64,000 nt of DNA from Magallana gigas (lineage: Eukaryota): the NCBI RefSeq assembly GCF_963853765.1, contig NC_088860.1, forward strand, positions 41,168,001 to 41,232,000, read 5' to 3'. Each line of letters starts with the position of its first letter. Position 1 is the first letter of the stretch. Position numbers and translations under genes: made by a program. Under the pieces are notes generated by a model. That model did not search any database. It was not told where the DNA came from and saw only the letters and a program-made list of their open reading frames with translations. Below, one piece after another: positions 27,244-58,182 of the stretch.

Positions 27244-27313
<70 letters not shown>

Positions 27314-34077: not shown

Positions 34078-34320
34078 CTGTAAATGAACAAAAACTGCAA
34101 GATTAGATTATGGTTTTCAACATCTTGAGATAATATGGAATGATTGAAATACTTTTTTAAAGCACCCTGTATGTCTGTGACTCTAACTGTCATTTTGACA
34201 AAGTCATTAGCATCGATAGACTACATGTATCTACTAGATTTTCCATAGAGCAATCTCCCCTCAATTAATACTAAGTACATGTATCTGTATCAAGTTTTTC
34301 TCCATAAATATACACAATCC

Positions 34321-34324
<4 letters not shown>

Positions 34325-34376
<52 letters not shown>
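34325..34376. repeat. (TC)n microsatellite
   Basis: Direct inspection. Confidence 0.95.
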
Positions 34377-34379
<3 letters not shown>

Positions 34380-34882
34380 AATGGATGTTTACATCATTAG
34401 AACAATTAATTTTTCAACATATGATGACTCTTTTCTGACAGCACCCACACACAATTGTACAAAATGTATCACATTTCTCAGTAGATCTATAGGTTGACTT
34501 TACAGATCAGGTAAGTGTAGGTGTGTTATTGTACCATTCATGTGTGATCTCTACCTGTATTCACCTGATACACATCAATTTCTTTCTACAAGGTCCATCA
34601 ACCAAGCAATCATTTAAACTATGATGGAAATAACAATTTTATTCACAAAACTTAAAATACTCTTGATCATTTTATCTGATGGAACACCAAGTTTCTTGAT
34701 TTAATATCAGACTTCAATATACTTCTCCAATTTAACATGCACCAGTACTTGTACATATATTGTATATAAAACAGTATCCTCTATCATTTTAAGTGAGATT
34801 CATATCCAAATGTATTTTATCAGCAAAGAAGCTGATACAAAATGATGTATGAAAAATGCCATATATATAGAATCAAGAGTAT

Positions 34883-34984
34883 TGGTTCAAGGTGATGAAT
34901 ACCATATAAGGTATGGTTCAAGGTGATGAATACCATATAAGGTTTGGTTCAAGATGATGAATACCATATAAGGTATGGTTCATG
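34883..34984. repeat. 31-bp minisatellite, ~3.3 copies
   Basis: TGGTTCAAGGTGATGAATACCATATAAGGTA at 34883, 34914, 34945, partial at 34976. Confidence 0.9.
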
Positions 34985-35103
34985 GTAATTTGCTCAACAT
35001 TCAAGGTGATCTTAATGTCAAAAACTTAATCAAAGTACTGAAGTACTGAAAGCCGGGCTCTTTTGGTGTGTCTTTATGCATATTGTGTGGTAAAGACTGA
35101 AAA

Positions 35104-35104
<1 letters not shown>

Positions 35105-35165
<61 letters not shown>
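35105..35165. repeat. (TC)n microsatellite
   Basis: Direct inspection. Confidence 0.95.
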
Positions 35166-35169
<4 letters not shown>

Positions 35170-37886
35170 GCTTTTAATGTCGGCAAAGCATCAGAGAGCG
35201 ATCAATTTTTGTAAGCGGCTAAAAACAAAAATATGTCTGTCTAGTAGAAAAAAGTTCAACAGTTTCTGCCTTGAATTTTGCAACAAGCGTTATATATTCA
35301 ATCCCCATTTCTTCAACGCGCAGCAAAGTAGTTCATGAAAATTCATGCGCATTTTATGTATCCAAAATGCATAGTCTTGTTTTTAAAACAATTAAGTTAT
35401 TAATAAGAAAACTAAAAAAGAAAGACAATTCTCTCGAAATTAAAATAAAAGAAACAATTAAAATGCCAACACTTTTGACAAAACGTGGCTCTTTGTGTAA
35501 CTATTTGGTATAGCGGAAGCTTTTACTTTGACGCTGTTTGGTTTTTTGTTTACTTGTGCTATTTATAGTAAAATTGGCGATTTGCCTGCCTATAGCCAGG
35601 ACTCTGCTTTCAGCAGAGCCCGGCTAAGATGTAATAAGTTAACTTGTTACATGTACATGTATATTAATTTATTAAACCTTATGCCATCGTGTATACTACA
35701 TTATAACTAAAACCAGAACATCTACCTGGGTGGGTTTTTTTGTACTTTTGATGATACATTTACATTGTACATTTCTATTTCAGACCTTTCAGATATTTAT
35801 ATTTCTGTAACCCTAGTTGCATGTAAATCTCTGGTGACAACTGGCAGAAGGCGTTCCGTGAGTGCATGTGTGTGCATGTTGTCAATGTAACATCATTAAA
35901 TGGAAAACGATAGGTTTCTATAGACATGATAGAAGTGCAGTCTGTTGAATACTCTTGATATAGAATAAACCAAACACAACATATTTACATCGAAGCTTGA
36001 AAATTAAATTACATGCCTTGGCTGTACATCCTGTTATTCTGATTAAAATTAAGTGACCTTTACAAAAGTGAATCCTAGAATATAGATCAGAAAAATTTCA
36101 ATGTGATCAAATCCTTCTTAATCCCTTAATCCTTATTTAAAGCATATAGCTTTGCTGATAAAGAGAAATCTGACCTGCCAAGTACTTTAAGAATTAAGAA
36201 ATTGTGAAGTGAAAAGATTGAATTTGATTGCATTCATTCACTCAAACTCTCAGAAGAGAGAAAAAGAAGAATGTGATGTGTTACAATTGTTAATTAATTT
36301 TACATCGTTTGGTATTATCATCTTAAGATGTTAACATCAGATTTATGACTGCAGTTTGTTGTGAAATCAATATATAGCAAGACATAAATTGCAGGCTGGA
36401 CAATCTTACAAGCAAAGATTACAGGAAGCTCTCACCAAAACAACCTCAGATAATATGATTGAGACATGATTGAAAAACAGTTAAAAGTTACACTGTTCAA
36501 TTCATAACGCACTTCAAAACTCATTCCTTCTTCTTCCTGGAAATTGCATAACCTCGTGTCAAACAGAAATTTTATTACCACATAGTTTGTGACCATATTG
36601 TGTTGCTCATGAAAACAAAAGTTAACAATGATGGAAATCTAAATATGTTCAAAATAAATCATCTTATATTTGCACCCAAAACTAAGTTCTAAATGATATA
36701 TTGATACTTTATATATAATCAATGTATCAACAACTAAAATTTCATTACAATTAATTATTACAAAATCTCAATCACAGCCACATTTGAAAAGGATGAATAC
36801 CAGGAATATCTATAATAGTACATGTATATCAATCACTAAAAAAAGTCAGCCATTATACCATACTAACATTAAAATACAAGTCATGCACCTGTAACTCAAA
36901 TGTAACATTTTCAACTGCACTGAAACTTCAAATTACTGACAATTTTATTTGAACTTGTCAACTTTTAAAGTCTGATTTAAAAGTCACTACCGGTATATGT
37001 GCAAGTGCTAACTTAATTAAGTTAATGAGCACAATATATTATCCTTATCATGTTTTAATGGAGTAGGATGGCATGACTGATGCTCTGGTCAAAACGGTCA
37101 GAAACAGTTCATGGTCATTGAATTCTGAATGCAGGAATAAATACTATATATGTAACGGTTTTAAATCATAGGACGTATGTGGGATATCAATTAATTTCTT
37201 GTCAAAAATTAAATAACCTATGAAAGAGGTACTATTTTTCTTGGAAATTTTAATCCATCAATTTAAGCAAGGCCTTTTTTAATGATTTTGTGATGAACTA
37301 AGCTGATAGAGCTCTGTTTCAAGGAAATTGCAAATAGTACTTATTCTACAGATCAGCTTTTCATCAGAACAGCCTAATTACCTTGATACATAATGGTTAG
37401 GTAATTTGTTATAGTATGATGCATTGTAACAGAAAACAATGAAATCTCAACCTGCACATTGTCAACCTCATGCATGGTATGATAGAAAACTTATAATCAA
37501 TCAAGAGAATGTTCCCAGAAGATAGAATAGAAACATTTTACAAAATATCTACCACATCATCATGTTTCCACGCACTGGGCATTTTGATGGTTGTAAATGC
37601 ATGAGGTTGCTAAGATAAATTATATATATGATTTTGGACTAAAGAAAGGAGATTTACAATGCTTGCCAATGGCTCATGTAACTCCTCAATTAATAATCGC
37701 ACCAGTTGAACGGATGCAATTTTTTTTTAACTCAAAATATTTTGCAACCTATCAATTAAATATGAATATATCTGACACCTTTAAATTGCATGTCATTAAT
37801 AATTATGTACAATCAAAGTGTATGCATCATGAAAATACATCATAAAACATGCAAAGAACACAACAAAAAATCAAATCTAGTTAATA

Positions 37887-40800
37887 TTGATGGTAAAATT
37901 CCAGCAGCTTTGTTCAATCTTCCACCAACACACATTAGTCCATTTTCATCTAAGAATGGTGCAAGTGTGGATATACTTGTGTCTTTGTTCAAAGGTTTTC
38001 CAGACTTTAAACTGTTTATCTCTTTAGAGAAGAATTCTTGTTGAATCTGTTTTAGGACAAAGGTCTCTGCTTCACAAATTTCATCATAACGGGTAAGTTG
38101 CATAGGTTTCTGGTCACGACAAGCTCTAAACCTGCGGCAAACTCGCTTGAGACAAGCAATGCCCGTAATGAGACAACTCCAACGATCAAATCGATCAAAT
38201 TTCTTGGTAATGAGATCAGATCCTGTTGTTGTAATGGTAACATCAGTTTGTGAGCATATTACAGGTCTATCGATTGGACGGACTTCTCTGTCACTATCAG
38301 GTTCAACAAGTGGAAACTGTGTAGGTTTCATTTCTGTCACATCACACAACCATTGTGGACCAGTAATCCATGGTAACCGCATAATGTTGATCACATTAGT
38401 GTTGCATCTTGTACAAGAATCTGCAGGATTCTTTTCACTGGAAATGAAGTTCCATTGATTGGCATTAGATATTCGTAGAATACGATCAACTCGGTTGCTT
38501 ACATAGGTGTAAAATCTTCGAGTCCTATTACCAATGTAGCCTAACACAACTCTGCTATCTGTGTAAAATCTCATGGTTTGCAATGGGATGCCAAGTTGTA
38601 CAGATATGATCTCTGCGAGTTCCGTTGCTAAGACAGCTCCACACAATTCTAGGCGAGGAATGGTGTGGCCATTAAGAGGTGCTAACTTGCTTCTTCCCAT
38701 GATGAATCGAACGCTTGTTTGTCCATCACTTACAGTTTTTATATATGCTGATGCTGCTATTGCCTTTTCTGAAGCATCTGAGAATATGTGAACTTCTGCT
38801 GTCTGAGCTGAACTAACAGAGGTGTGAGACATCATACGGGGAATGGCGATATCACTGAGACAGTGAAGAGACGATTGCCACTCCTTCCACTTTTGAAGAT
38901 TATTGACAGGTAATGGTTCATCCCAGTCAACTCCTTCAGGTGTGCATTCTCGGAGAAGTATTTTACCGCTGATGATGATTGGTGATATGAAACCTAATGG
39001 GTCGAATAGGCTGTTTACAGTTGAGAGCAGACCGCGACGAGTAAAAGGTTTCTCTTCAGTAGGTACTGTAAACACAAAAGTATCATCCTTCAGTCTCCAA
39101 CAAAGTCCAAGAGATCTGTGTATCATGTCATCACTATCTATTTCTTTCAACTGTTCTCCATGATCACTGACATCAAAAGCGTCCATCACAGCTTGTTTGT
39201 TGGACGTGATTTTGTGAAGACGAATCTGACCTTCCTGTTTCATGGTTGACTGAGTGCGCTTCATCAGGCTGATAGCATCTGATTCATTTGGTAAAGAGAT
39301 TAACCCGTCATCAACGTAGAAGTTATGATGTACAAAGTTTTTCACATCTCGATCAGCGTGTTCGACAGTCTTAAGGAGTCCATAAGATGCAATAGCAGGC
39401 GACGGACTGTTGCCGAATACATGTGAAGTCATTCTGTACTCTATCATGATGTCATCTGGGTTGTTTTCTTTATACCAAAAGAAGCGTAGGTAATTGCGGT
39501 GGTTTTCATCAACACGAAATCGGTAAAACATCTGCTCTATATCTGCTGCCATCGCCACCTCATCCTTCCTAAAACGAAGCAAGATCCCAAGAAGGCTGTT
39601 GATCATGTCTGGACCAGACATGAGTACTGAATTGAGGGAAACTCCACCATACTTAGCCGACGAATCAAAAACGCCTCTTATTTGATCTGGTTTCTTTGGG
39701 TTACGAACGCCAAACAAAGGTAGGTACCAGCAACCTGTGCTTGTTGGAGGTGGCGCAACTTCTGCTGCTCCACTGTTTAGAACTTTCTCCATGAATTTCA
39801 CAAACTGTCTCTTCTTTTCTGTATCTTTCTGTAAACTGTTGTGTAGTATCTGAGCTCGATGTAATGCCTGAGGTCTGTTGTTAGGAAGATCAGGTTGGTT
39901 CTCTCGAAAAGGAAGAGGTACAGTCCACATGCCGTCCTTGTCTTTAGTGAATGTTCTATCCATCAACTTTAGGAATAGTCTGTCTTCTACCGATAAACCA
40001 ATACAATCATCTTCAGGGGTCTTCATAAAGACATCTTCACCATGAAATTGAAAGTCACGCTCACCAATTATATAGTTAGACACAAGTGTTTGCTCTTTCA
40101 CGTCAATGTTGTTCTGACAAGGTTGACTGCATGTAACTCTACCATCATTGAGAATAGACACTTTGTTGACATTCACGGAGGTTCTTCTATGAAGTTTACC
40201 GAGACAAACTTCACCAATTATAGCCCAACCAAGACTAAGTCTTTGAGCGAATGGTTCCCCTCGAGGTCCAGTGATCTGCTCTTCAATGTGATGGGCCTCA
40301 ATCAAGTCTCTACCAATAAGGAGCTGTATTTTTGAATTCACATCAAACTCAGGTATACTAGATGCAATTCTGAGAAGGTGAGGGTAGCTCTTAGCAACTT
40401 CTGGTGTAGGAATTTCAGAGGTTTCGTTAGGGATGTCATCACATTCCATCAGAAGAGGAAGGTCCATTGTCACAGCTGTGTCCAATGATCGTAACTTCAT
40501 ACTATGTGCTTGCCGACCATTTTGGGCTGTCTTTCCCATACATGTTGTCAAAGTGTAATGAATGGGTGAGGACATAATGTTCAAGGCATCAAATAGTTCT
40601 GGAGATGCAAGAGACTGGTTGCATTGGTCATCCACGATTGCGTAAACACGATACATGTTGTTAGGACAGTCTGTGTGAAATACATCCACAAGGAAAATTT
40701 TGCTGCATGATCTGCCTTGATAATGGTCACCACAGAATGTAGTACACTTGACACTAGTGTTTGTTGAAGCTTTCATAGGTACAGGCGATATGTTGTCTGT

Positions 40801-42597
40801 TTCTGACTTCATGGTTTGTAGAGATGAGTTATACATTTTCTCCCCGCCATGCATGCTTGGGCTTGATGATGGACCTTTGTTTATATGCAAAGCTGTCGTA
40901 TGATAAACACTCCCACAAGCAGTGCATTGGATTTTGACTTGGCAGTCTTTTGCTGTATGACTAGTTGAGGTGCAACATCTAGTACAAATGTTTTTACTTT
41001 GCAAAAAGTTCTTGCGTTCAAAGAACGGTTTTGCACGGAAGGCTCTACAATCATGGATGCTATGATCTGCCTTATGATATGGGCAGCGGGTGTTGTTGTT
41101 GTTGTCTGTTGACACCTCAGACTTTTTGGAGTATACCGGTCTCTTGAGAGCTGGTTGTCGGCTGTTGGTGAATACAAATGCCGGATCATTTCTGATTTCA
41201 CTCATTTCGCGTACAAATGTCACAAAATATGAAAATGGTGGGAACGGCACTTTGTTTAACTTTTTGAAATTGGAGGCTTTGGCGATCCATTTTTCCTGCA
41301 GGTGAAATGGTAATTTGTTGATGATAGGATTCACTCCAATTGACGAGTTAAAATACGATAGGCTTGTAGAAAATGTTGAATTGGCCATCAGTGATTCTAT
41401 CTTAATGAGAATGTTTAACAAGTCATACAGGCGCTTGTTTTCAGCTGATGTCACTGGTCGGAAGTTTTCTAGCTGGTGACGTATCGACGCTTCGATCATT
41501 TCTGGTCTCCCGTACATCTCATCAAGTCTTTTCCAGATTATTTGAAGTGCTTCCTTAGGTTTACCAGGATTTGCATTGCGAATTCCAATTGCTGTAAGTT
41601 TGGAATTGCCAGTGAGTCTATTTAACATTAACTCAAGTTCTTCATTACAGGAAACTTTTAGTTCACTGATAATATTGGTAAATGTTTCCTTCCAGGCATT
41701 GTACGAATCTGGCGAGTCATCAAAGTTTGAAAAACGTTCAGGAAGCATTTGCTTTTTAATCATAAGCAGGGCCATTTCAGATAGCACATGAGGCGATTCA
41801 GTTGTGGGTATCTGGACATCAACAGGATTGGAAGGGATGTTTTCCACAAACTTCTGTGTTCGTTCCCCTGAACTCTCTCTCTCAATGTCTGCAAGGTCTT
41901 GCTCCATTGAAAGTTCATCATCACTAGCACTCTGTTCTTGTTTCAGTAAATCTAAGTCAATGTCCAACTCACACTTTTTTCTGTTCATTTCAGCTATACG
42001 TATTGATTCATCTTCCTCAAGGCGAAGTTTCTGTTTTCTTAACTCTGCTTCTTTTTTCATTATTTCCAACTTCCGCTCTTTTCTTCTTTTCCTCTCAGTG
42101 CTGGTTGTTGATATTTCTGAGGCTGTTTCTAAGAGGTCTAATTTTGCAGCTTTAATGTTGTCTAAGGCCTTGTAAACCACTGACTTTCCTTTCTCGAAGT
42201 CCTCGGTACATCGTTTCATCTCGCTTTTACCTTGTTCACTTCTGGAGTGTCTTTGTAGAAAGACAAGGTACTGTTTAATACTGTTGTGAAATTCACTGAA
42301 TGTGTTCTCTATATCACTCTGTAAGATTTGATATTGTTCAATGTTTCTGTCACATTTTTGCACACGTAGAATGCATTTTTCGACTTTCCCCCATGTTTCG
42401 AATATAGGTTTTTTATATTTTGAACATTCTTCTTCAAATGCTAAGAGTCCTTTCTCACTCAAGATAACATCACGTTTATCCTTGATAGAGGTGTTGGTTT
42501 CTTCAATCTCGTTCTGGGAATCACTGTTCCGTGGTAAGGGGAGCCCTCCCGTAGCCATGTTTCCTTGGTGTGTAAATTCAATTTACTGTACTGTTTG
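37887..42597 (-). mobile_element. Inverted BEL/Pao copy (alpha): 11 nt of 5' LTR, leader, gag-PR-RT-RH, cut before integrase
   Basis: Reverse complement of 49354-54064; ORF 37840-42558 runs into host DNA after GILPS. Confidence 0.93.
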
Positions 42598-42653
42598 TTT
42601 TCAGCTGATGTCACTGGTTGGAAGTTTTCTAGCTGGTGACGTATCGACGCTTC

Positions 42654-45231
42654 GATCATATCGGTACAACTTGGCACCCCATTGCAAACCATGAGATTTT
42701 ACACAGATAGCAGAGTTGTGTTAGGCTACATTGGTAATAGGACTCGAAGATTTTACACCTATGTAAGCAACCGAGTTGATCGTATTCTACGAATATCTAA
42801 TGCCAATCAATGGAACTTCATTTCCAGTGAAAAGAATCCTGCAGATTCTTGTACAAGATGCAACACTAATGTGATCAACATTATGCGGTTACCATGGATT
42901 ACTGGTCCACAATGGTTGTGTGATGTGACGGAAATGAAACCTACACAGTTTCCACTTGTTGAACCTGATAGTGACAGAGAAGTCCGTCCAATCGATAGAC
43001 CTGTAATATGTTCACAAACTGATGTTACCATTACAACAACAGGATCTGATCTCATTACCAAGAAATTTGATCGATTTGATCGTTGGAGTTGTCTCATTAC
43101 GGGCATTGCTTGTCTCAAGCGAGTTTGCCGCAGGTTTAGAGCTTGTCGTGACCAGAAACCTAAGCAACTTACCCGTTATGATGAAATTCGTGAAGCAGAG
43201 ACCTTTGTCCTAAAACAGATTCAAAAAGAATTCTTCTCTAAAGAGATAAACAGTTTAAAGTCTGGAAAACCTTTGAACAAAGACACAAGTATATCCACAC
43301 TTGCACCATTCTTAGATGAAAATGGACTAATGTGTGTTGGTGGAAGATTGAACAAAGCTGCTGGAATTTTACCATCAAAGGAAATCAATCCAATTCTTCT
43401 TCCCAAGAACAGTCATATCTCTGTTCTTTTGATTCGTCATTTTCACGAGCAAGTCAAACATCAGGGGAGATTATTCACTGAAGGTGCACTTCGTACGGCA
43501 GGTTATTGGATCCTGGGAGGCAAGCGCATGATTTCATCTTTCATTCACACTTGCGTGACTTGTCGAAAACTTCGCCGTGGCCTTGAAACACAGATGATGG
43601 CAGACTTACCAGAGGACAGGATCACACCAGGCCCAGCTTTCACATCTGTTGGAATTGATGTCTTCGGACCATGGGAAGTCTGTACCCGCAGAACTAGAGG
43701 AGGAGCTGCAAACAGCAAGAGATGGGGACTGATGTTTACCTGTTTAACATCAAGAGCAGCTCACATAGAGGTTATTGAAGAGATGTCGAGTTCATGTTTT
43801 ATAAATGCACTGCGTAGATTTCTATCACTCCGTGGCCCAGTGAAGATAATAAGATCTGACCGAGGCACCAATTTCATTGGAGCTGCTGAGGAAATGAGAG
43901 TGAACACGATAAAAGTAGAAGAGGGACCAGTTCAACAGTTCCTGGACAAATCCTACATCACCTGGATTTTCAATGTCCCACATTCCTCCCATATGGGTGG
44001 TGTCTGGGAGCGAGTCATAGGAATGACAAGGAAAATCCTCGATTCAATGCTTTTGGAATCTAGTGGTAAACCTCTAACACATGAGACATTAGCAACATTT
44101 TTATGTGAAGTTTGTGCCATCATAAACTCTAGACCTATAGCACCGATACCTTCGGATCCAAATGACCCAATGATTCTTACACCAACTATGATTCTCACCG
44201 GAAAAGTTGATTTCCTACCAGTCGTGTCTGATTCACTCAGTCTACAAGACGTTTACAGAGCGCAATGGAAACGTGTCCAAATCCTTGCAGATATTTTCTG
44301 GAATCAGTGGCGTAAGCAGTATCTATCTATCCTACAAAGTAGACGTAAGTGGAAAAGCGAAACCAGAAACGTTAAAGAAGATGATGTGGTACTGTTGAAA
44401 AATCCCGCTGAGCATCGGAACAACTGGCCAACTGGTATTATCGACCGCGTATTTCCAAGTGACGATGGAATCGTGAGAAAAGTTGTTGTGCGAACTATTC
44501 GAGCAGGAAAACCAACATTTTACATTCGACCAATTCATGATCTCGTGTTGCTAATAGAAAGTGAACAGTGACTAGATGTGAACTGTAACTTATGGACTGT
44601 GAATAATGGACTGTAACTTATGGACTGTGAATAATGGACTGTTAACAATGAATTTGTAAACATTGACTTGTATTATGATTCATGTATCAAGTGATCACGA
44701 GATGTATTATTTATCAACTAGTTTATCACAATTTTGAAATGTTTTGTGCATGCATATGAGTAGTGGCATCTCAAAGATGCCAGGCGGGGAGTGTAGTGGA
44801 ACCAAGAGTTATCTCTCTTGATCTTGTATTGTGCAGTCTGAGAGTTATTCCTCTTTATGTGGAACTCTTCTATGTTCAGTTTTTCACGCTGTGTACGTGC
44901 GGTCCCGCCGCAGTGCTACACATTTTCTTTACCAACATATTCCATGTTTCATCCTTGTCCCCTCAAATTGTAAGTATCATATGCATTTAGATATATGAAA
45001 TATTCATTTTATTTGTTTTTTTTGCCATGACATGTTTATAAAAGCAAACATAAGCACCCTCGTAATGACTGTTACTGTAGTAGGTTGTAGGCGCCATATT
45101 TTCTCGTGTTTACATTTGTTGATGTTAAACATATAGGATACCTTCATCATTTATATGATTTACTGGTCATTAATAAGTACACAGCACACCAATAAAGTGT
45201 GAATTCTATGTTTATATTTTTCAATTAAATT
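42654..45231 (+). mobile_element. BEL/Pao variant beta: 3' pol (ORF 42682-44571), 3' UTR, PPT and LTR truncated at nt 440 (44792-45231)
   Basis: 629-aa ORF with beta-specific changes (KPKQ, EIRE, SETRNVKEDD); LTR joined to the leader through TAAATT. Confidence 0.9.
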
Positions 45232-45252
45232 GAATTTACACACCAAGGAGAC

Positions 45253-45681
45253 ATGGCTACCGGAGGGCTCCCCTTACCACGGAACAGTGATTCCCAGAAC
45301 GAGATTGAAGAAACCAACACCTCTACCAAGGATAAACGTGATGTTATCTTGAGTGAAAAAGGACTCTTAGCATTTGAAGAAGAATGTTCAAAATATAAGA
45401 AACCTATATTCGAAACATGGGGGAAAGTCGAAAAATGCATTCTACGTGTGCAAAAATGTGACAGAAACATTGAACAATATCAAATCTTACAGAGTGATAT
45501 AGATGTAGTGGAACCAAGAGTTATCTCTCTTGATCTTGTATTGTGCAGTCTGAGAGTTATTCCTCTTTATGTGGAACTCTTCTATGTTCAGTTTTTCACG
45601 CTGTGTACGTGCGGTCCCGCCGCAGTGCTACACATTTTCTTTACCAACATATTCCATGTTTCATCCTTGTCCCCTCAAATT
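45253..45681 (+). mobile_element. Beta gag first 251 nt fused to the first 178 nt of an LTR
   Basis: ...GATATAGA|TGTAGTGGAACC at 45503/45504. Confidence 0.9.
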
Positions 45682-45689
45682 CAATTTAC

Positions 45690-46447
45690 TGTACTGTTTG
45701 AAAAACAGCAAGTATAACCATATTCAATAATTATTGGTAATCTTTATTGAATGTAGATCTGATGTAGATCTGAAGTGGTAAATTGCTGAAACAAATTATA
45801 AACAATTTATAAATACATGGGATAATATGCAAACTGACATTTTAACAATTCATACAATAATACATTTATATCATATATGTATATATATCATAGTTCTCAT
45901 AAGAAATAAATTGACAATTATCAAAATAGACGAATTCCAAAATGTGCACCCAGTATTGAAACAGTAGCCCGAGGGAAATTATGGAATATAGGTAAAAAAG
46001 GGAAAATAATTTAATTGAAAAATATAAACATAGAATTCACACTTTATTGGTGTGCTGTGTACTTATTAATGACCAGTAAATCATATAAATGATGAAGGTA
46101 TCCTATATGTTTAACATCAACAAATGTAAACACGAGAAAATATGGCGCCTACAACCTACTACAGTAACAGTCATTACGAGGGTGCTTATGTTTGCTTTTA
46201 TAAACATGTCATGGCAAAAAAAACAAATAAAATGAATATTTCATATATCTAAATGCATATGATACTTACAATTTGAGGGGACAAGGATGAAACATGGAAT
46301 ATGTTGGTAAAGAAAATGTGTAGCACTGCGGCGGGACCGCACGTACACAGCGTGAAAAACTGAACATAGAAGAGTTCCACATAAAGAGGAATAACTCTCA
46401 GACTGCACAATACAAGATCAAGAGAGATAACTCTTGGTTCCACTACA
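45690..46447 (-). mobile_element. Complete beta LTR (758 bp) at the palindrome centre
   Basis: Both termini present; two 1-nt deletions and over a dozen substitutions relative to alpha, counted by eye. Confidence 0.92.
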
Positions 46448-49356
46448 TCTATATCACTCTGTAAGATTTGATATTGTTCAATGTTTCTGTCACATTTTTG
46501 CACACGTAGAATGCATTTTTCGACTTTCCCCCATGTTTCGAATATAGGTTTCTTATATTTTGAACATTCTTCTTCAAATGCTAAGAGTCCTTTTTCACTC
46601 AAGATAACATCACGTTTATCCTTGGTAGAGGTGTTGGTTTCTTCAATCTCGTTCTGGGAATCACTGTTCCGTGGTAAGGGGAGCCCTCCGGTAGCCATGT
46701 CTCCTTGGTGTGTAAATTCAATTTAATTGAAAAATATAAACATAGAATTCACACTTTATTGGTGTGCTGTGTACTTATTAATGACCAGTAAATCATATAA
46801 ATGATGAAGGTATCCTATATGTTTAACATCAACAAATGTAAACACGAGAAAATATGGCGCCTACAACCTACTACAGTAACAGTCATTACGAGGGTGCTTA
46901 TGTTTGCTTTTATAAACATGTCATGGCAAAAAAAACAAATAAAATGAATATTTCATATATCTAAATGCATATGATACTTACAATTTGAGGGGACAAGGAT
47001 GAAACATGGAATATGTTGGTAAAGAAAATGTGTAGCACTGCGGCGGGACCGCACGTACACAGCGTGAAAAACTGAACATAGAAGAGTTCCACATAAAGAG
47101 GAATAACTCTCAGACTGCACAATACAAGATCAAGAGAGATAACTCTTGGTTCCACTACACTCCCCGCCTGGCATCTTTGAGATGCCACTACTCATATGCA
47201 TGCACAAAACATTTCAAAATTGTGATAAACTAGTTGATAAATAATACATCTCGTGATCACTTGATACATGAATCATAATACAAGTCAATGTTTACAAATT
47301 CATTGTTAACAGTCCATTATTCACAGTCCATAAGTTACAGTCCATTATTCACAGTCCATAAGTTACAGTTCACATCTAGTCACTGTTCACTTTCTATTAG
47401 CAACACGAGATCATGAATTGGTCGAATGTAAAATGTTGGTTTTCCTGCTCGAATAGTTCGCACAACAACTTTTCTCACGATTCCATCGTCACTTGGAAAT
47501 ACGCGGTCGATAATACCAGTTGGCCAGTTGTTCCGATGCTCAGCGGGATTTTTCAACAGTACCACATCATCTTCTTTAACGTTTCTGGTTTCGCTTTTCC
47601 ACTTACGTCTACTTTGTAGGATAGATAGATACTGCTTACGCCACTGATTCCAGAAAATATCTGCAAGGATTTGGACACGTTTCCATTGCGCTCTGTAAAC
47701 GTCTTGTAGACTGAGTGAATCAGACACGACTGGTAGGAAATCAACTTTACCGGTGAGAATCATAGTTGGTGTAAGAATCATTGGGTCATTTGGATCCGAA
47801 GGTATCGGTGCTATAGGTCTAGAGTTTATGATGGCACAAACTTCACATAAAAATGTTGCTAATGTCTCATGTGTTAGAGGTTTACCACTAGATTCCAAAA
47901 GCATTGAATCGAGGATTTTCCTTGTCATTCCTATGACTCGCTCCCAGACACCACCCATATGGGAGGAATGTGGGACATTGAAAATCCAGGTGATGTAGGA
48001 TTTGTCCAGGAACTGTTGAACTGGTCCCTCTTCTACTTTTATCGTGTTCACTCTCATTTCCTCAGCAGCTCCAATGAAATTGGTGCCTCGGTCAGATCTT
48101 ATTATCTTCACTGGGCCACGGAGTGATAGAAATCTACGCAGTGCATTTATAAAACATGAACTCGACATCTCTTCAATAACCTCTATGTGAGCTGCTCTTG
48201 ATGTTAAACAGGTAAACATCAGTCCCCATCTCTTGCTGTTTGCAGCTCCTCCTCTAGTTCTGCGGGTACAGACTTCCCATGGTCCGAAGACATCAATTCC
48301 AACAGATGTGAAAGCTGGGCCTGGTGTGATCCTGTCCTCTGGTAAGTCTGCCATCATCTGTGTTTCAAGGCCACGGCGAAGTTTTCGACAAGTCACGCAA
48401 GTGTGAATGAAAGATGAAATCATGCGCTTGCCTCCCAGGATCCAATAACCTGCCGTACGAAGTGCACCTTCAGTGAATAATCTCCCCTGATGTTTGACTT
48501 GCTCGTGAAAATGACGAATCAAAAGAACAGAGATATGACTGTTCTTGGGAAGAAGAATTGGATTGATTTCCTTTGATGGTAAAATTCCAGCAGCTTTGTT
48601 CAATCTTCCACCAACACACATTAGTCCATTTTCATCTAAGAATGGTGCAAGTGTGGATATACTTGTGTCTTTGTTCAAAGGTTTTCCAGACTTTAAACTG
48701 TTTATCTCTTTAGAGAAGAATTCTTTTTGAATCTGTTTTAGGACAAAGGTCTCTGCTTCACGAATTTCATCATAACGGGTAAGTTGCTTAGGTTTCTGGT
48801 CACGACAAGCTCTAAACCTGCGGCAAACTCGCTTGAGACAAGCAATGCCCGTAATGAGACAACTCCAACGATCAAATCGATCAAATTTCTTGGTAATGAG
48901 ATCAGATCCTGTTGTTGTAATGGTAACATCAGTTTGTGAACATATTACAGGTCTATCGATTGGACGGACTTCTCTGTCACTATCAGGTTCAACAAGTGGA
49001 AACTGTGTAGGTTTCATTTCCGTCACATCACACAACCATTGTGGACCAGTAATCCATGGTAACCGCATAATGTTGATCACATTAGTGTTGCATCTTGTAC
49101 AAGAATCTGCAGGATTCTTTTCACTGGAAATGAAGTTCCATTGATTGGCATTAGATATTCGTAGAATACGATCAACTCGGTTGCTTACATAGGTGTAAAA
49201 TCTTCGAGTCCTATTACCAATGTAGCCTAACACAACTCTGCTATCTGTGTAAAATCTCATGGTTTGCAATGGGGTGCCAAGTTGTACCGATATGATCGAA
49301 GCGTCGATACGTCACCAGCTAGAAAACTTCCAACCAGTGACATCAGCTGAAAACAA
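46448..49356 (-). mobile_element. Mirror of the beta block: gag 5' fragment, truncated LTR 46720-47159, pol ORF 47380-49269, 65-nt gag insert
   Basis: Position x pairs with 91951-x throughout. Confidence 0.92.
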
Positions 49357-49392
49357 ACAGTACAGTAAATTGAATTTACACACCAAGGAAAC

Positions 49393-52300
49393 ATGGCTAC
49401 GGGAGGGCTCCCCTTACCACGGAACAGTGATTCCCAGAACGAGATTGAAGAAACCAACACCTCTATCAAGGATAAACGTGATGTTATCTTGAGTGAGAAA
49501 GGACTCTTAGCATTTGAAGAAGAATGTTCAAAATATAAAAAACCTATATTCGAAACATGGGGGAAAGTCGAAAAATGCATTCTACGTGTGCAAAAATGTG
49601 ACAGAAACATTGAACAATATCAAATCTTACAGAGTGATATAGAGAACACATTCAGTGAATTTCACAACAGTATTAAACAGTACCTTGTCTTTCTACAAAG
49701 ACACTCCAGAAGTGAACAAGGTAAAAGCGAGATGAAACGATGTACCGAGGACTTCGAGAAAGGAAAGTCAGTGGTTTACAAGGCCTTAGACAACATTAAA
49801 GCTGCAAAATTAGACCTCTTAGAAACAGCCTCAGAAATATCAACAACCAGCACTGAGAGGAAAAGAAGAAAAGAGCGGAAGTTGGAAATAATGAAAAAAG
49901 AAGCAGAGTTAAGAAAACAGAAACTTCGCCTTGAGGAAGATGAATCAATACGTATAGCTGAAATGAACAGAAAAAAGTGTGAGTTGGACATTGACTTAGA
50001 TTTACTGAAACAAGAACAGAGTGCTAGTGATGATGAACTTTCAATGGAGCAAGACCTTGCAGACATTGAGAGAGAGAGTTCAGGGGAACGAACACAGAAG
50101 TTTGTGGAAAACATCCCTTCCAATCCTGTTGATGTCCAGATACCCACAACTGAATCGCCTCATGTGCTATCTGAAATGGCCCTGCTTATGATTAAAAAGC
50201 AAATGCTTCCTGAACGTTTTTCAAACTTTGATGACTCGCCAGATTCGTACAATGCCTGGAAGGAAACATTTACCAATATTATCAGTGAACTAAAAGTTTC
50301 CTGTAATGAAGAACTTGAGTTAATGTTAAATAGACTCACTGGCAATTCCAAACTTACAGCAATTGGAATTCGCAATGCAAATCCTGGTAAACCTAAGGAA
50401 GCACTTCAAATAATCTGGAAAAGACTTGATGAGATGTACGGGAGACCAGAAATGATCGAAGCGTCGATACGTCACCAGCTAGAAAACTTCCGACCAGTGA
50501 CATCAGCTGAAAACAAGCGCCTGTATGACTTGTTAAACATTCTCATTAAGATAGAATCACTGATGGCCAATTCAACATTTTCTACAAGCCTATCGTATTT
50601 TAACTCGTCAATTGGAGTGAATCCTATCATCAACAAATTACCATTTCACCTGCAGGAAAAATGGATCGCCAAAGCCTCCAATTTCAAAAAGTTAAACAAA
50701 GTGCCGTTCCCACCATTTTCATATTTTGTGACATTTGTACGCGAAATGAGTGAAATCAGAAATGATCCGGCATTTGTATTCACCAACAGCCGACAACCAG
50801 CTCTCAAGAGACCGGTATACTCCAAAAAGTCTGAGGTGTCAACAGACAACAACAACAACACCCGCTGCCCATATCATAAGGCAGATCATAGCATCCATGA
50901 TTGTAGAGCCTTCCGTGCAAAACCGTTCTTTGAACGCAAGAACTTTTTGCAAAGTAAAAACATTTGTACTAGATGTTGCACCTCAACTAGTCATACAGCA
51001 AAAGACTGCCAAGTCAAAATCCAATGCACTGCTTGTGGGAGTGTTTATCATACGACAGCTTTGCATATAAACAAAGGTCCATCATCAAGCCCAAGCATGC
51101 ATGGCGGGGAGAAAATGTATAACTCATCTCTACAAACCATGAAGTCAGAAACAGACAACATATCGCCTGTACCTATGAAAGCTTCAACAAACACTAGTGT
51201 CAAGTGTACTACATTCTGTGGTGACCATTATCAAGGCAGATCATGCAGCAAAATTTTCCTTGTGGATGTATTTCACACAGACTGTCCTAACAACATGTAT
51301 CGTGTTTACGCAATCGTGGATGACCAATGCAACCAGTCTCTTGCATCTCCAGAACTATTTGATGCCTTGAACATTATGTCCTCACCCATTCATTACACTT
51401 TGACAACATGTATGGGAAAGACAGCCCAAAATGGTCGGCAAGCACATAGTATGAAGTTACGATCATTGGACACAGCTGTGACAATGGACCTTCCTCTTCT
51501 GATGGAATGTGATGACATCCCTAACGAAACCTCTGAAATTCCTACACCAGAAGTTGCTAAGAGCTACCCTCACCTTCTCAGAATTGCATCTAGTATACCT
51601 GAGTTTGATGTGAATTCAAAAATACAGCTCCTTATTGGTAGAGACTTGATTGAGGCCCATCACATTGAAGAGCAGATCACTGGACCTCGAGGGGAACCAT
51701 TCGCTCAAAGACTTAGTCTTGGTTGGGCTATAATTGGTGAAGTTTGTCTCGGTAAACTTCATAGAAGAACCTCCGTGAATGTCAACAAAGTGTCTATTCT
51801 CAATGATGGTAGAGTTACATGCAGTCAACCTTGTCAGAACAACATTGACGTGAAAGAGCAAACACTTGTGTCTAACTATATAATTGGTGAGCGTGACTTT
51901 CAATTTCATGGTGAAGATGTCTTTATGAAGACCCCTGAAGATGATTGTATTGGTTTATCGGTAGAAGACAGACTATTCCTAAAGTTGATGGATAGAACAT
52001 TCACTAAAGACAAGGACGGCATGTGGACTGTACCTCTTCCTTTTCGAGAGAACCAACCTGATCTTCCTAACAACAGACCTCAGGCATTACATCGAGCTCA
52101 GATACTACACAACAGTTTACAGAAAGATACAGAAAAGAAGAGACAGTTTGTGAAATTCATGGAGAAAGTTCTAAACAGTGGAGCAGCAGAAGTTGCGCCA
52201 CCTCCAACAAGCACAGGTTGCTGGTACCTACCTTTGTTTGGCGTTCGTAACCCAAAGAAACCAGATCAAATAAGAGGCGTTTTTGATTCGTCGGCTAAGT

Positions 52301-55257
52301 ATGGTGGAGTTTCCCTCAATTCAGTACTCATGTCTGGTCCAGACATGATCAACAGCCTTCTTGGGATCTTGCTTCGTTTTAGGAAGGATGAGGTGGCGAT
52401 GGCAGCAGATATAGAGCAGATGTTTTACCGATTTCGTGTTGATGAAAACCACCGCAATTACCTACGCTTCTTTTGGTATAAAGAAAACAACCCAGATGAC
52501 ATCATGATAGAGTACAGAATGACTTCACATGTATTCGGCAACAGTCCGTCGCCTGCTATTGCATCTTATGGACTCCTTAAGACTGTCGAACACGCTGATC
52601 GAGATGTGAAAAACTTTGTACATCATAACTTCTACGTTGATGACGGGTTAATCTCTTTACCAAATGAATCAGATGCTATCAGCCTGATGAAGCGCACTCA
52701 GTCAACCATGAAACAGGAAGGTCAGATTCGTCTTCACAAAATCACGTCCAACAAACAAGCTGTGATGGACGCTTTTGATGTCAGTGATCATGGAGAACAG
52801 TTGAAAGAAATAGATAGTGATGACATGATACACAGATCTCTTGGACTTTGTTGGAGACTGAAGGATGATACTTTTGTGTTTACAGTACCTACTGAAGAGA
52901 AACCTTTTACTCGTCGCGGTCTGCTCTCAACTGTAAACAGCCTATTCGACCCATTAGGTTTCATATCACCAATCATCATCAGCGGTAAAATACTTCTCCG
53001 AGAATGCACACCTGAAGGAGTTGACTGGGATGAACCATTACCTGTCAATAATCTTCAAAAGTGGAAGGAGTGGCAATCGTCTCTTCACTGTCTCAGTGAT
53101 ATCGCCATTCCCCGTATGATGTCTCACACCTCTGTTAGTTCAGCTCAGACAGCAGAAGTTCACATATTCTCAGATGCTTCAGAAAAGGCAATAGCAGCAT
53201 CAGCATATATAAAAACTGTAAGTGATGGACAAACAAGCGTTCGATTCATCATGGGAAGAAGCAAGTTAGCACCTCTTAATGGCCACACCATTCCTCGCCT
53301 AGAATTGTGTGGAGCTGTCTTAGCAACGGAACTCGCAGAGATCATATCTGTACAACTTGGCATCCCATTGCAAACCATGAGATTTTACACAGATAGCAGA
53401 GTTGTGTTAGGCTACATTGGTAATAGGACTCGAAGATTTTACACCTATGTAAGCAACCGAGTTGATCGTATTCTACGAATATCTAATGCCAATCAATGGA
53501 ACTTCATTTCCAGTGAAAAGAATCCTGCAGATTCTTGTACAAGATGCAACACTAATGTGATCAACATTATGCGGTTACCATGGATTACTGGTCCACAATG
53601 GTTGTGTGATGTGACAGAAATGAAACCTACACAGTTTCCACTTGTTGAACCTGATAGTGACAGAGAAGTCCGTCCAATCGATAGACCTGTAATATGCTCA
53701 CAAACTGATGTTACCATTACAACAACAGGATCTGATCTCATTACCAAGAAATTTGATCGATTTGATCGTTGGAGTTGTCTCATTACGGGCATTGCTTGTC
53801 TCAAGCGAGTTTGCCGCAGGTTTAGAGCTTGTCGTGACCAGAAACCTATGCAACTTACCCGTTATGATGAAATTTGTGAAGCAGAGACCTTTGTCCTAAA
53901 ACAGATTCAACAAGAATTCTTCTCTAAAGAGATAAACAGTTTAAAGTCTGGAAAACCTTTGAACAAAGACACAAGTATATCCACACTTGCACCATTCTTA
54001 GATGAAAATGGACTAATGTGTGTTGGTGGAAGATTGAACAAAGCTGCTGGAATTTTACCATCAAAGGAAATCAATCCAATTATTCTTCACAAGAACAGTC
54101 ATATCTCTGTTCTTTTGATACGTCATTTTCACGAGCAAGTCAAACATCAGGGGAGATTATTCACTGAAGGTGCACTTCGTACGGCAGGTTATTGGATCCT
54201 GGGAGGCAAGCGCATGATTTCATCTTTCATTCACACTTGCGTGACTTGTCGAAAACTTCGCCGTGGCCTTGAAACACAGATGATGGCAGACTTACCAGAG
54301 GACAGGATCACACCAGGCCCAGCTTTCACATCTGTTGGAATTGATGTCTTCGGACCATGGGAAGTCTGTACCCGCAGAACTAGAGGAGGAGCTGCAAACA
54401 GCAAGAGATGGGGACTGATGTTTACCTGTTTAACATCAAGAGCGGCTCACATAGAGGTTATTGAAGAGATGTCGAGTTCATGTTTTATAAATGCACTGCG
54501 TAGATTTCTATCACTCCGTGGCCCAGTGAAGATAATAAGATCTGACCGAGGCACCAATTTCATTGGAGCTGCTGAGGAAATGAGAGTGAACACGATAAAA
54601 GTAGAAGAGGGACCAGTTCAACAGTTCCTGGACAAATCCTACATCACCTGGATTTTCAATGTCCCACATTCCTCCCATATGGGTGGTGTCTGGGAGCGAG
54701 TCATAGGAATGACAAGGAAAATCCTCGATTCAATGCTTTTGGAATCTAGTGGTAAACCTCTAACACATGAGACATTAGCAACATTTTTATGTGAAGTTTG
54801 TGCCATCATAAACTCTAGACCTATAGCACCGATACCTTCGGATCCAAATGACCCAATGATTCTTACACCAACTATGATTCTCACCGGTAAAGTTGATTTC
54901 CTACCAGTCGTGTCTGATTCACTCAGTCTACAAGACGTTTACAGAGCGCAATGGAAACGTGTCCAAATCCTTGCAGATATTTTCTGGAATCAGTGGCGTA
55001 AGCAGTATCTATCTATCCTACAAAGTAGACGTAAGTGGAAAAGCAAAACCAGAAACGTTAAAGTAGATGATGTGGTACTGTTGAAAGATCCCGCTGAGCA
55101 CCGGAACAACTGGCCAACTGGTATTATCGACCGCGTATTTCCAAGTGACGATGGAATCGTGAGAAAAGTTGTTGTGCGAACTATTCGAGCAGGAAAACCA
55201 ACATTTTACATTCGACCAATTCATGATCTCGTGTTGCTAATAGAAAGTGAACAGTGA
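49393..55257 (+). CDS. Intact BEL/Pao gag-pol polyprotein (1954 aa)
   Basis: One ORF in Gag-PR-RT-RH-IN order: three CCHC-type knuckles, YAIVDDQ protease motif, YVDD, FSDAS, HHCC, DVFG/SDRGTNF/WER; no stops or frameshifts. Confidence 0.96.
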   Translation: MATGGLPLPRNSDSQNEIEETNTSIKDKRDVILSEKGLLAFEEECSKYKKPIFETWGKVEKCILRVQKCDRNIEQYQILQSDIENTFSEFHNSIKQYLVFLQRHSRSEQGKSEMKRCTEDFEKGKSVVYKALDNIKAAKLDLLETASEISTTSTERKRRKERKLEIMKKEAELRKQKLRLEEDESIRIAEMNRKKCELDIDLDLLKQEQSASDDELSMEQDLADIERESSGERTQKFVENIPSNPVDVQIPTTESPHVLSEMALLMIKKQMLPERFSNFDDSPDSYNAWKETFTNIISELKVSCNEELELMLNRLTGNSKLTAIGIRNANPGKPKEALQIIWKRLDEMYGRPEMIEASIRHQLENFRPVTSAENKRLYDLLNILIKIESLMANSTFSTSLSYFNSSIGVNPIINKLPFHLQEKWIAKASNFKKLNKVPFPPFSYFVTFVREMSEIRNDPAFVFTNSRQPALKRPVYSKKSEVSTDNNNNTRCPYHKADHSIHDCRAFRAKPFFERKNFLQSKNICTRCCTSTSHTAKDCQVKIQCTACGSVYHTTALHINKGPSSSPSMHGGEKMYNSSLQTMKSETDNISPVPMKASTNTSVKCTTFCGDHYQGRSCSKIFLVDVFHTDCPNNMYRVYAIVDDQCNQSLASPELFDALNIMSSPIHYTLTTCMGKTAQNGRQAHSMKLRSLDTAVTMDLPLLMECDDIPNETSEIPTPEVAKSYPHLLRIASSIPEFDVNSKIQLLIGRDLIEAHHIEEQITGPRGEPFAQRLSLGWAIIGEVCLGKLHRRTSVNVNKVSILNDGRVTCSQPCQNNIDVKEQTLVSNYIIGERDFQFHGEDVFMKTPEDDCIGLSVEDRLFLKLMDRTFTKDKDGMWTVPLPFRENQPDLPNNRPQALHRAQILHNSLQKDTEKKRQFVKFMEKVLNSGAAEVAPPPTSTGCWYLPLFGVRNPKKPDQIRGVFDSSAKYGGVSLNSVLMSGPDMINSLLGILLRFRKDEVAMAADIEQMFYRFRVDENHRNYLRFFWYKENNPDDIMIEYRMTSHVFGNSPSPAIASYGLLKTVEHADRDVKNFVHHNFYVDDGLISLPNESDAISLMKRTQSTMKQEGQIRLHKITSNKQAVMDAFDVSDHGEQLKEIDSDDMIHRSLGLCWRLKDDTFVFTVPTEEKPFTRRGLLSTVNSLFDPLGFISPIIISGKILLRECTPEGVDWDEPLPVNNLQKWKEWQSSLHCLSDIAIPRMMSHTSVSSAQTAEVHIFSDASEKAIAASAYIKTVSDGQTSVRFIMGRSKLAPLNGHTIPRLELCGAVLATELAEIISVQLGIPLQTMRFYTDSRVVLGYIGNRTRRFYTYVSNRVDRILRISNANQWNFISSEKNPADSCTRCNTNVINIMRLPWITGPQWLCDVTEMKPTQFPLVEPDSDREVRPIDRPVICSQTDVTITTTGSDLITKKFDRFDRWSCLITGIACLKRVCRRFRACRDQKPMQLTRYDEICEAETFVLKQIQQEFFSKEINSLKSGKPLNKDTSISTLAPFLDENGLMCVGGRLNKAAGILPSKEINPIILHKNSHISVLLIRHFHEQVKHQGRLFTEGALRTAGYWILGGKRMISSFIHTCVTCRKLRRGLETQMMADLPEDRITPGPAFTSVGIDVFGPWEVCTRRTRGGAANSKRWGLMFTCLTSRAAHIEVIEEMSSSCFINALRRFLSLRGPVKIIRSDRGTNFIGAAEEMRVNTIKVEEGPVQQFLDKSYITWIFNVPHSSHMGGVWERVIGMTRKILDSMLLESSGKPLTHETLATFLCEVCAIINSRPIAPIPSDPNDPMILTPTMILTGKVDFLPVVSDSLSLQDVYRAQWKRVQILADIFWNQWRKQYLSILQSRRKWKSKTRNVKVDDVVLLKDPAEHRNNWPTGIIDRVFPSDDGIVRKVVVRTIRAGKPTFYIRPIHDLVLLIESEQ

Positions 55258-55477: not shown

Positions 55478-56237
55478 TGTAGTGGAACCAAGAGTTATCT
55501 TTCTTGATCTTGTATTATACAGTCTGAGAGTTATTCCTCTTTATGTGGAACTCTTCTATGTTCAGTTTTTCACGCTGTGTACGTGCGGTCCCGCCGCAGT
55601 GCTACACATTGTCTATACCAACATATTCCATGTTTCATCCTTGTCCCCTCAAATTGTAAGTATCATATGCATTTAGATATATGAAATATTCATTTTATTT
55701 GTTGTTTTTGCCATGACATGTTTATATAAGCAAACATAAGCACCCTCGTAATGACTGTTACTGTAGTAGGTTGTAGGCGCCATATTTTCTCGTGTTTACA
55801 TTTGTTGATGTTAAAACATATAAGTATAACTTCATTATTTATATGATTTACTGGTCATTAATAAGTACACAGCACACCTATAAAGTGTGAATTCTATGTT
55901 TATATTTTTCAATTAAATTATTTTCCCTTTTTTACCTATATTCCATAATTTCCCTCGGGCTACTGTTTCAATACTGGGTGCACATTTTGGAATTCGTCTA
56001 TTTTGATAATTGTCAATTTATTTCTTATGAGAACTATGATATATATACATATATGATATAAATGTATTATTGTGTGAATTGTTAAAATGTCAGTTTGCAT
56101 ATTATTCCATGTATTTATAAATTGTTTATAATTTGTTTCAGCAATTTACCACTTCAGATCTACATCAGATCTACATTCAATCAAGATTACCAATAGTTAT
56201 TGAATCTGGTTATACTTGCTGTTTTTCAAACAGTACA
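55478..56237 (+). mobile_element. 3' LTR (alpha), followed by TSD CCCCG
   Basis: 760 bp; AATAAA reads AATCAA in this copy. Confidence 0.95.
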
Positions 56238-58182
56238 CCCCGACCGAAATTATCATGATTCCTTATTACTTATATTTATATAATTTTGAGCCATCGTACG
56301 ATTAAATATTTAAATATGAATAAGCAAACCCCGATGGAGCCTCAATTTGGCGTCATTTGTATTATCGGTTATATAGTACAAAATCGATACGTAGTGTTAT
56401 CACAGGCAAAGACACTGGAAAATGTAAATATACAAAATTATATACATGTATCTATTTATCATATATAAATGATTAAATTTTTATTCCAGTTTTTCATCCA
56501 CTGATCCCCTTGGTGGTAGATCTGGAGGGGATTTTCCTGACAAACTTACCCTAAAAAATTCAAACTTCTTAAATCCACATTGTAAAGTTACCTAAAATAG
56601 GCCTCGCACTCTCCATCGACTCTCCTCCCGGAAAACGTCTTTATCACTCGGATCGCCATAGGAATTCTTTCTCGATCCGCGTATATATGCCATCCAACTG
56701 AAACGAATGTCGTATTGATTCAAAGAAACATGAAATATAGACATTTTATGTTATAATCTTGTTTAAAAGAAGTTTGTATGATTCAAAGAAAAAAACGTAT
56801 TTTTGAAGGGCTTACATGTTTAATATTTTATATATTAACTTTTATCTTTATCAGAAACATTTGGGGTTTTTGTTATTAGCATCTTCGCTCCGAGGAAAGT
56901 GGACCAAAAACCCTTGGCTAGCAAAGACGGTTATAAGGCACTGTGGCTGAGTACAAATATCATATGTATGACATCAACACACAGGGGATATATTTTTTTT
57001 AATAACACTGCACGCTGTTGAAATTTAAAATAATCCATAATGATATATAAATATAAGCTATATGTTTAAAGTACCCTTTAAAAAAATATCCCTCTGCAAC
57101 CTCCAGACGACAAGTACCTTATCGTAATTGTATCCTGAACCCAACCTAGAAATGTAACCCCCCCCCCCCAAAGAATTTACCTGTTCAAAATTAACTCAAA
57201 CAAACATTAATAAATTAAAGTTGGTGTAGTTATCATATTTGATTTATAGTCAATTACTAGCTTTTAATTTTTCAAAAATATGTATTAAATTCAGGATGAA
57301 AAAAATCCCTGCGGCTTGTGCGCTGCGCAGATCTTGAGGGGAGGGTTGGTCAGATCATCTGGAACCCCCCCCCCCCCCCCCAACTAGGATAATCAAAACG
57401 TATATGATTAACAGTTAAGTTACAGTAAATAGGCGTTGGAACCTCTGGCAAACATGCAAATATACTTTAATCAACTGAGAACTTTTTTTGGTTAATATTT
57501 GATATCTTAAAAGCCCCACGTGTACAGAAAAGTTCGAAGTAATACTACCATAGGCCTTCTAAAATTACTTTAATTCATCGTCAGGGGATCCCTGGGGGGG
57601 GGGGGGGAAATGGTTCAGTGTAAATATTCAAAATAAAACATTGAAATTCGTTATTATGTAACTTTTATCACTCTACACCGAGACGGGTTATGCTTATTTA
57701 TGAAATTCTATTTTATAGTTATAGTAATCACGAAATGTTAAAAGAAGTCAAAAAGGTTTTTTTTAAAGCAACATACCGAATATGTTTTTATTCTAATGAC
57801 AATTTAATGACAGTGTAAATAATTCAAAATAATAAAATTGAAATGCGTTATTATATAACTTTTATCATTCTAAACCAAATTATGCTTAGCTTATTTATGA
57901 AACATTAAAATATGACTTATAATCAATGTACGGTGCAAAATTCTGTTTTATAGTTATAGATTAGTAATCACGAAATGTTAAAAGTAATCAAAAAGTTTTT
58001 TTTCTACAAAAGCATCATACCGAAATTTTTTTTTATTTGTGAAATGAAAATTAATGTTTGTCCATGCATTCTGATTATGACTATGTCTTATGCTGGCGAA
58101 TATACACAAAATATGACTGATTTGATATACGTGCAGTGTTCCTCATTTTATTTTTACGTAGCGTGGGATTTTCATATTTAAA

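Follow-up and report, generated by a model that had tools for sequence, protein, structure and literature searches.

A rearranged young BEL/Pao insertion in Magallana gigas whose palindrome probably folded back at a predicted splice joint of the LTR

We analysed a window of 64,000 nucleotides of Magallana gigas DNA (NC_088860.1, positions 41,168,001 to 41,232,000), which belongs to a contig of 51 Mb in an assembly of 564 Mb. The large palindrome in this window, here called palindrome B, is probably the product of a real, rare rearrangement in one young BEL/Pao insertion, in which fold-back was seeded by reverse transcription through a predicted splice-made primer. Since the centre of the palindrome is the exact predicted splice joint of the LTR, fold-back via a spliced RNA primer is likely. 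That the allele is real has, in our judgement, a high probability, and the structure is most likely a defective by-product.

As a preliminary description had already stated, palindrome B consists of two arms of 7,795 bp each (37887-45681 and 46270-54064) in which position x pairs with position 91951-x, and there is one mismatch in 7,795 positions (44202/47749). Arm pairing is lost at once outside 37887 and 45681. Palindrome B is not a chance match. Of the 14 inverted matches with a length of 500 bp or more and an identity of 97% or more that were detected in the 692 kb surrounding the window, 11 lie at this locus; the other three are 0.6 to 1.4 kb long, less than 99% identical and 58 to 145 kb apart. 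A comparable palindrome was found neither in the remaining 628 kb examined nor in any of the 17 element loci tested. The view that palindrome B is made of retrotransposon DNA only was borne out, as 37887-54064 could be assigned entirely to one BEL/Pao family, and the two haplotypes proposed earlier, alpha and beta, were verified. Alpha differs from beta by about 1% and has an exact match in none of ten dispersed copies.

Using one natural element copy as a ruler (coordinates e1 to e7629), the arms were found to contain element nt 748-5458 (gag-PR-RT-RH) and 4734-6871 (RH end-IN-3'UTR), followed by LTR 1-440, the gag start (760-1037) and LTR 1-178. In each arm, beta e748-5458 is joined to an alpha block composed of e1849-1910, e4734 to LTR 440, e760-1037 and LTR 1-178. 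The left arm opens with the beta body on the minus strand (37887-42597; nt 748-5458), which ends at a 5-nt microhomology with the neighbouring host segment, and continues with a templated piece of about 62 bp on the minus strand (42595-42662; nt 1849-1910) flanked by two microhomology junctions. The rest of the arm is alpha sequence on the plus strand. The end of RH, IN, the 3'UTR, the polypurine tract and LTR 1-440 (42654-45231) are connected via 6 nt of microhomology with the start of the primer-binding position; the leader and gag start (45226-45503; nt 760-1037) then meet the exact TG end of an LTR with no microhomology, and LTR 1-178 (45504-45681) terminates with the last base before the fold-back point at 45681/45682, which is the predicted splice donor. 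The right arm (46270-54064) mirrors 37887-45681. The long frame at 49369-55257 on the plus strand, a BEL/Pao gag-pol frame of 1,962 codons, is indeed stop-free, and of its 5' LTR only 12 bp (LTR nt 748-759) are left, a point that had been missed.

The element is a BEL/Pao element, with Peptidase_A17, RT, integrase and DUF5641 in one frame and RT before IN. Members of the family are 7.63 kb long, have TG..CA LTRs of 759 bp and produce 5-bp target duplications. Among 11 dispersed copies examined, LTR pairs were identical in four and a full-length stop-free frame was present in four; therefore, the family moved very recently. We also considered whether the beta body has a 5' part of separate descent, and rejected this because the divergence pattern there resembles that of another copy.

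Palindrome B lies inside a single insertion with ends at 18344 and 56237, both flanked by CCCCG as a 5-bp target-site duplication (18339-18343 and 56238-56242, plus strand). The two outer LTRs, both beta and on the plus strand (5' LTR, 18344-19103, with a predicted intron at LTR 179-664; 3' LTR, 55478-56237), differ by 1 substitution in 760 nt, and the insertion carrying palindrome B is, judged from its sequence, very young. The interior of this 37.9-kb insertion also contains a second palindrome (A) and 9.8 kb of host DNA (segment X), in the order palindrome A, segment X, palindrome B. The rearrangement of this single insertion spans 14837-57962 and so extends beyond palindrome B, where the preliminary description had stopped.

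Palindrome A (14837-28044) has arms at 14837-19445 and 23472-28044, each made of host flank, LTR and junction, around a 4.0-kb spacer in which element nt 5331-7629 and 1.7 kb from the host flank on the right are present as an inverted copy. The complete inverted copy in palindrome A comprises the left flank, the LTR, e5014-7629 and 1.7 kb of the right flank. Behind the 5' LTR, the stretch 19104-19445 (plus strand) consists of the primer-binding position, 24 nt antisense to LTR exon 1 and, after a jump with 7-nt microhomology, element nt 5014-5330. Between the copies of the duplicated host flanks, the only differences are in the length of homopolymers or microsatellites. At 1754-2659, 10081-10692 and 14539-15393 of the window there are tandem NHL-repeat exons with a similarity of about 80%, probably from a cluster of TRIM-NHL genes. 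The last of these exons ends 3 kb before the insertion, and its 3' part is duplicated in palindrome A.

The 5' LTR is followed by GTAAATTGAATTT, with no tRNA-type (TGG) site, and leaders in BEL/Pao copies start with GTAAA or similar, not with TGG. The left arm of palindrome B stops at LTR 178, immediately 5' of GTAAGT, and the next 8 letters in the window are the 8 letters that follow a pyrimidine tract and CAG at LTR 663, the predicted start of exon 2 (LTR nt 664). The predicted splice product, AAATTCAATTTAC, is present at 45677-45689 and complements, without mismatch, the 13 nt that follow the 5' LTR; none of 400 shuffles gave such a match. The order at the centre of palindrome B is exon 1, 8 nt of exon 2 and the minus-strand LTR end. 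Indeed, fold-back at the donor plus 8 exon-2 nt accounts for the length of the 588-bp spacer (45682-46269, minus strand), which consists of alpha LTR 179-758 (580 bp; predicted intron, exon 2 and U5) and the first 8 nt of the primer-binding position. The unspliced transcript offers a contiguous complement of only 8 nt, which lies behind the predicted splice acceptor, and its first bases are not complementary to the primer site in the manner of Tf1. We rejected pairing of the Tf1 type with a start of the unspliced RNA near LTR 663 or 434, since the 8-nt site, with a pyrimidine tract and AG directly before it, reads as an acceptor. The extended pairing between exon 1 and the leader has -16.6 kcal/mol and is not the best among LTR windows. 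Two closer AAATT sites (LTR 438 and 642) were left unused by the fold-back. A small GTAAATT-G-AATTTAC hairpin was considered as the cause of fold-back and rejected, as it has only -2 kcal/mol and is absent in two of the four copies folded. We infer LTR splicing, the start site and the primer cut from sequence covariation.

The 19-mer at the centre occurs four times in the assembly: twice in palindrome A (as mirror copies), once in palindrome B and once in an independent, older insertion at G000:C5:46478166-46478184 (L031, L168). In this C5 copy, 6 leader letters are overwritten by antisense LTR exon 1 and the normal leader follows. The C5 copy also carries a 7.7-kb insertion and a 3' deletion. 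After the eighth base, the antisense match to exon 1 extends over 3-5 nt in ten of 11 dispersed copies, over 11 nt in the C5 copy, over 24 nt in palindrome A and over all 178 nt in palindrome B. Primer sequence appears to have been copied into progeny DNA, as expected of Tf1-type self-priming, and the graded series of 3-5, 11, 24 and 178 nt looks like the trace that would be expected of plus-strand synthesis through an unremoved primer. As LTR 730-771 contains no diagnostic site, the junction in palindrome A may derive from that in B and would then not count as an independent event. At another locus (L028; G000:C7, near 17025200), the LTR end is repeated in a short tandem duplication whose start lies 11 nt inside the primer-binding position; it is likely a mis-transfer at the same place.

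Complementarity across a predicted intron was also found in other BEL/Pao families. We examined 66 loci, of which one belonged to this family, 25 were related hits and 40 were taken from 150 Peptidase_A17 hits (long frames, differing length). Thirteen had no LTR pair in the stretch and nine had no clean ends, leaving 44 loci in 26 families. A complement of 10-15 nt across the predicted intron was present in 20 of these 26 families (at most 1 in 300 shuffles each); of the others, one had 8 nt, one had 13 contiguous nt and four (L154, L130, L158 and L159) had none. A GTRAGT donor was found in 17 of the 20 complement-bearing families, and in 16 of the 17 the last three exon-1 bases ahead of such a donor are complementary to the primer site. 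Cross-family pairs reached 10 nt in 30 of 380 cases, a comparison that favours the cognate fits because these were picked as best. In the family of L141 and L146, the 13-nt complement is contiguous, the LTR is 342 bp long (L141) and no GTRAG donor is present; the LTR of L141 is likely one that has lost its intron. L159 has a TGG-type site 4 nt past the called LTR end. Within G000:C1:68462855-68522575, four Peptidase_A17 hits spaced by 16-26 kb share the same score and frame length, and four similar hits lie within C1:16314493-16461810; both stretches appear to be tandem segmental duplications that include a BEL/Pao piece.

There are nine distinct new junctions in 40 kb, and microhomology of 5-7 nt is seen at five of the nine. 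It amounts to 5 nt at the centre junction, which recurs in palindrome A, to 7 nt at the jump to e5014 and to 5 nt at the junction between X and the arm. At the transition from e1037 to the exact TG end of an LTR there is 0 nt, and this junction resembles what integrase would leave. The remaining junctions have 2 nt, 0-1 nt, 3 nt (read by eye), 6 nt and 6 nt. Four of 14 element-side breakpoints lie at most 15 nt from an LTR end (P about 2e-5, for a zone picked after looking).

Segment X (28045-37891, plus strand; 9.8 kb) is ordinary host DNA in all four sequencing runs examined. It was at first regarded as unique DNA because only an internal repeat was seen, but this was rejected when a 95%-identical allele was found 0.54 Mb downstream, at G000:C8:41737672-41749985. 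In contigs from two other studies, X runs on past 37891 into host sequence and not into the element, and this host continuation is located at C8:41749986. Moreover, the X allele of the window is present in one run without differences over three contigs. Since the host continuation and a 95%-identical home allele lie elsewhere and the allele of the window occurs in that run, another allele appears to be the source of X; its presence here would be compatible with a switch to the homologue, with later recombination or with haplotype mixing in the assembly. The read check covered 6 of 24 runs, none apparently from the source animal, and the junctions readable in it were the two of X. These two outer junctions were not found in the contigs of other animals, the best of which contained 0.82 of the words. 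A metagenome scan for X gave 0 matches. The allele at C8:41.745 Mb lacks a 600-bp high-copy insertion that X carries at 35029-35628, and one contig in each of four runs skips this insertion. Beside the home locus of X, 182-bp satellite arrays lie in opposite orientation (G000:C8:41751212-41753594 and 41762339-41774180), and a pair of 326-bp arrays, also in opposite orientation, lies at window coordinates 127845-139378.

In the route that we propose, the 5' end of the spliced RNA would pair with the primer-binding site and be cut after the eighth exon-2 base, as in Tf1, so that exon 1 plus 8 nt would prime minus-strand DNA. Plus-strand synthesis would sometimes cross the unremoved primer and thereby extend the 3' end by a tail that is antisense to exon 1. 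If short, such a tail would overwrite the leader with 6 extra nt, as in the C5 copy, and a longer one would have mis-jumped, as in palindrome A. In the alpha copy, the tail would have snapped back onto the LTR of the same molecule, in which alpha and beta were already joined, and 7.8 kb of this molecule would have been copied. The e760 junction would represent an end of the minus strand that was transferred to the wrong place, and the junction at the exact LTR end would stem from autointegration or a nested insertion. The aberrant DNA and the beta insertion would then have been patched into the chromosome by microhomology template switches, and the same repair switches, acting on chromosomes, would have copied both host flanks and the segment from 0.54 Mb away.

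Chromosomal break repair alone would account for part of these data. A break between the beta LTR and the leader would have folded back by microhomology and been extended by serial template switches of the MMBIR or DUP-TRP/INV-DUP type; there would be no reverse-transcription intermediate, and the match to the splice donor would be a side effect of built-in complementarity. Since the centre junction has 5-nt microhomology, a DNA-only fold-back beside the LTR gives identical letters in A and B. The number of junctions with 5-7-nt microhomology (five of nine) and a weak 7-bp hairpin at the fold-back site agree with such a process, and the copied host flanks and the distant segment do require chromosomal templates. 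However, break repair leaves unexplained why the C5 copy has 6 overwritten nt and then the normal leader, why one junction falls on the exact LTR end and another on the first bases of the primer site, and why the two closer AAATT sites were skipped. Fold-back by microhomology is known at yeast breaks, but the fold-backs described there measure only 2-150 bp (PMC11724301). We consider break repair alone unlikely.

We see similarly little likelihood in an artefact, in which fold-back or chimeric reads or haplotype mixing would have made or mis-ordered the structure. It is true that the arms are 99.99% identical, that the duplicated flanks differ in homopolymer or microsatellite length only and that the lone arm mismatch is at a family-polymorphic site, as mis-polishing would give. 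X and alpha are also alleles without an assembled counterpart elsewhere, both of which haplotype mixing could yield, and both X junctions are absent from the contigs of other animals examined. On the other hand, nine different junctions occur in 40 kb, several of them at biological landmarks, and no similar structure came to light elsewhere in the 628 kb or at the 17 element loci. Depending on the platform, fold-back reads make up about 0.6% of reads (ONT genomic DNA) or are near zero (HiFi data; PMC12870357). The preliminary description had offered a chimera as its alternative, and this is unlikely, since junctions fall on the predicted splice donor, the primer-binding site and the exact LTR end and since the same junction motif occurs in the independent C5 copy. 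Such artefacts have no reason to track splice sites.

The palindrome had also been suggested to act as a silencer like Mu killer, and as far as anatomy goes this was correct: the structure is an inverted duplication of the element's own DNA. Whether such a read-through hairpin would be diced to small RNAs that silence the family in trans is a separate matter, which is compatible with the proposed origin; a Mu-killer function of palindrome B is doubtful, and we would give it a low probability. In its favour, copies of LTR exon 1 face inward in both palindromes, and transcription leftward from the whole LTR at 46447 would yield RNA antisense to IN and the gag start, with internal stems of 278 bp and 725 bp if it reached 37887. 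The claim of kilobase-long dsRNA over the ORF does not hold for LTR starts inside palindrome B, the stems of which measure about 0.8 kb at most; this figure assumes a start within LTR 1-178, where TCAGT, an initiator-like motif, lies at LTR 85. Only a transcript that starts to the left of 42597, or a long one running leftward, could form a gag-pol duplex. Moreover, AATAAA is present on both strands near the centre of palindrome B. Palindrome A, in which whole beta LTRs face inward in both arms and antisense IN and 3' LTR lie in the 4-kb spacer, is from its anatomy the better killer candidate. In RNA runs X21 and X24, which come from other animals, 22 and 21 reads per 1.9 Gb mapped to 36850-38600, mostly to the pol piece and mostly in one orientation, counts that are too low to rank expression. 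For molluscs, two studies report abundant piRNAs but no DICER2/siAGO and no endo-siRNA signature (PMC11114477, PMC12479628). If the locus is transcribed, antisense and short hairpin RNA would be made, and piRNA, editing or interferon-like responses would be more likely than siRNA. Nothing indicates selection for the allele, since with its X junctions it was not seen in other animals. A self-made killer, in which read-through of the splice-made BEL/Pao primer writes inverted-repeat and antisense loci and the allele feeds piRNAs against the family and can end its burst, is an idea to which we attach little weight. The silencer claim matters only if small RNAs turn up.

Many BEL/Pao primers have no obvious tRNA match, and the covariation in 20 of 26 families together with the apparent DNA record points to a self-primer spliced by the host. 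If this is true, reverse transcription would be tied to splicing, and the 5' LTR would have to be spliced and the 3' LTR not. It would also provide a specific way for a retrotransposon to give rise to palindromes of several kilobases and to antisense loci. We found no report of splice-made primers in BEL/Pao elements in a search of the open-access literature, PMC6317226 and PMC3601003 among it.

The element resembles Tf1 of S. pombe in that it has no tRNA site and its primer-binding position complements its own RNA; the Tf1 primer is reportedly not removed. Pairing in Tf1 involves the first 11 bases, RNase H cleavage falls between bases 11 and 12 (PMC7175516), and self-priming is known in Tf1/sushi, Tcn1 and TAR elements (PMC6317226). 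Unlike Tf1, the element described here belongs to BEL/Pao, its complement exists only across the predicted LTR intron, and exon 1 with 8 further nt would form a longer primer, so that a read-through tail would be able to snap back and build a palindrome. With the mollusc BEL/Pao elements (Belpaoviridae) it shares the single gag-pol frame, Peptidase_A17, RT, IN, DUF5641, the TG..CA LTRs (759 bp) and the 5-bp target-site duplication. The clades of these elements include the Sailor lineage, and the main text of the study concerned does not use the term 'PBS' (PMC6238403).

As in Mu killer of maize, part of an element is inversely duplicated and could be transcribed into a hairpin; Ac killer is grouped with Mu killer as an inverted element duplication. 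Mu killer is a rearranged MuDR, the hairpin of which gives rise to 21-22-nt RNAs and heritable silencing (PMC8224964). In contrast, the structure in M. gigas consists of a Class I element with 7.8-kb mosaic arms, lies in an animal reported to have no endo-siRNAs and likely originated in reverse transcription. Capture of Ty1 cDNA at breaks is a parallel for the captured retrotransposon DNA. Normal-inverted-normal copies, microhomology junctions and a templated distant segment are features shared with MMBIR and DUP-TRP/INV-DUP rearrangements (PMC11724301), but unlike in these, the fold-back point falls on the structure predicted for priming instead of on some arbitrary inverted microhomology.
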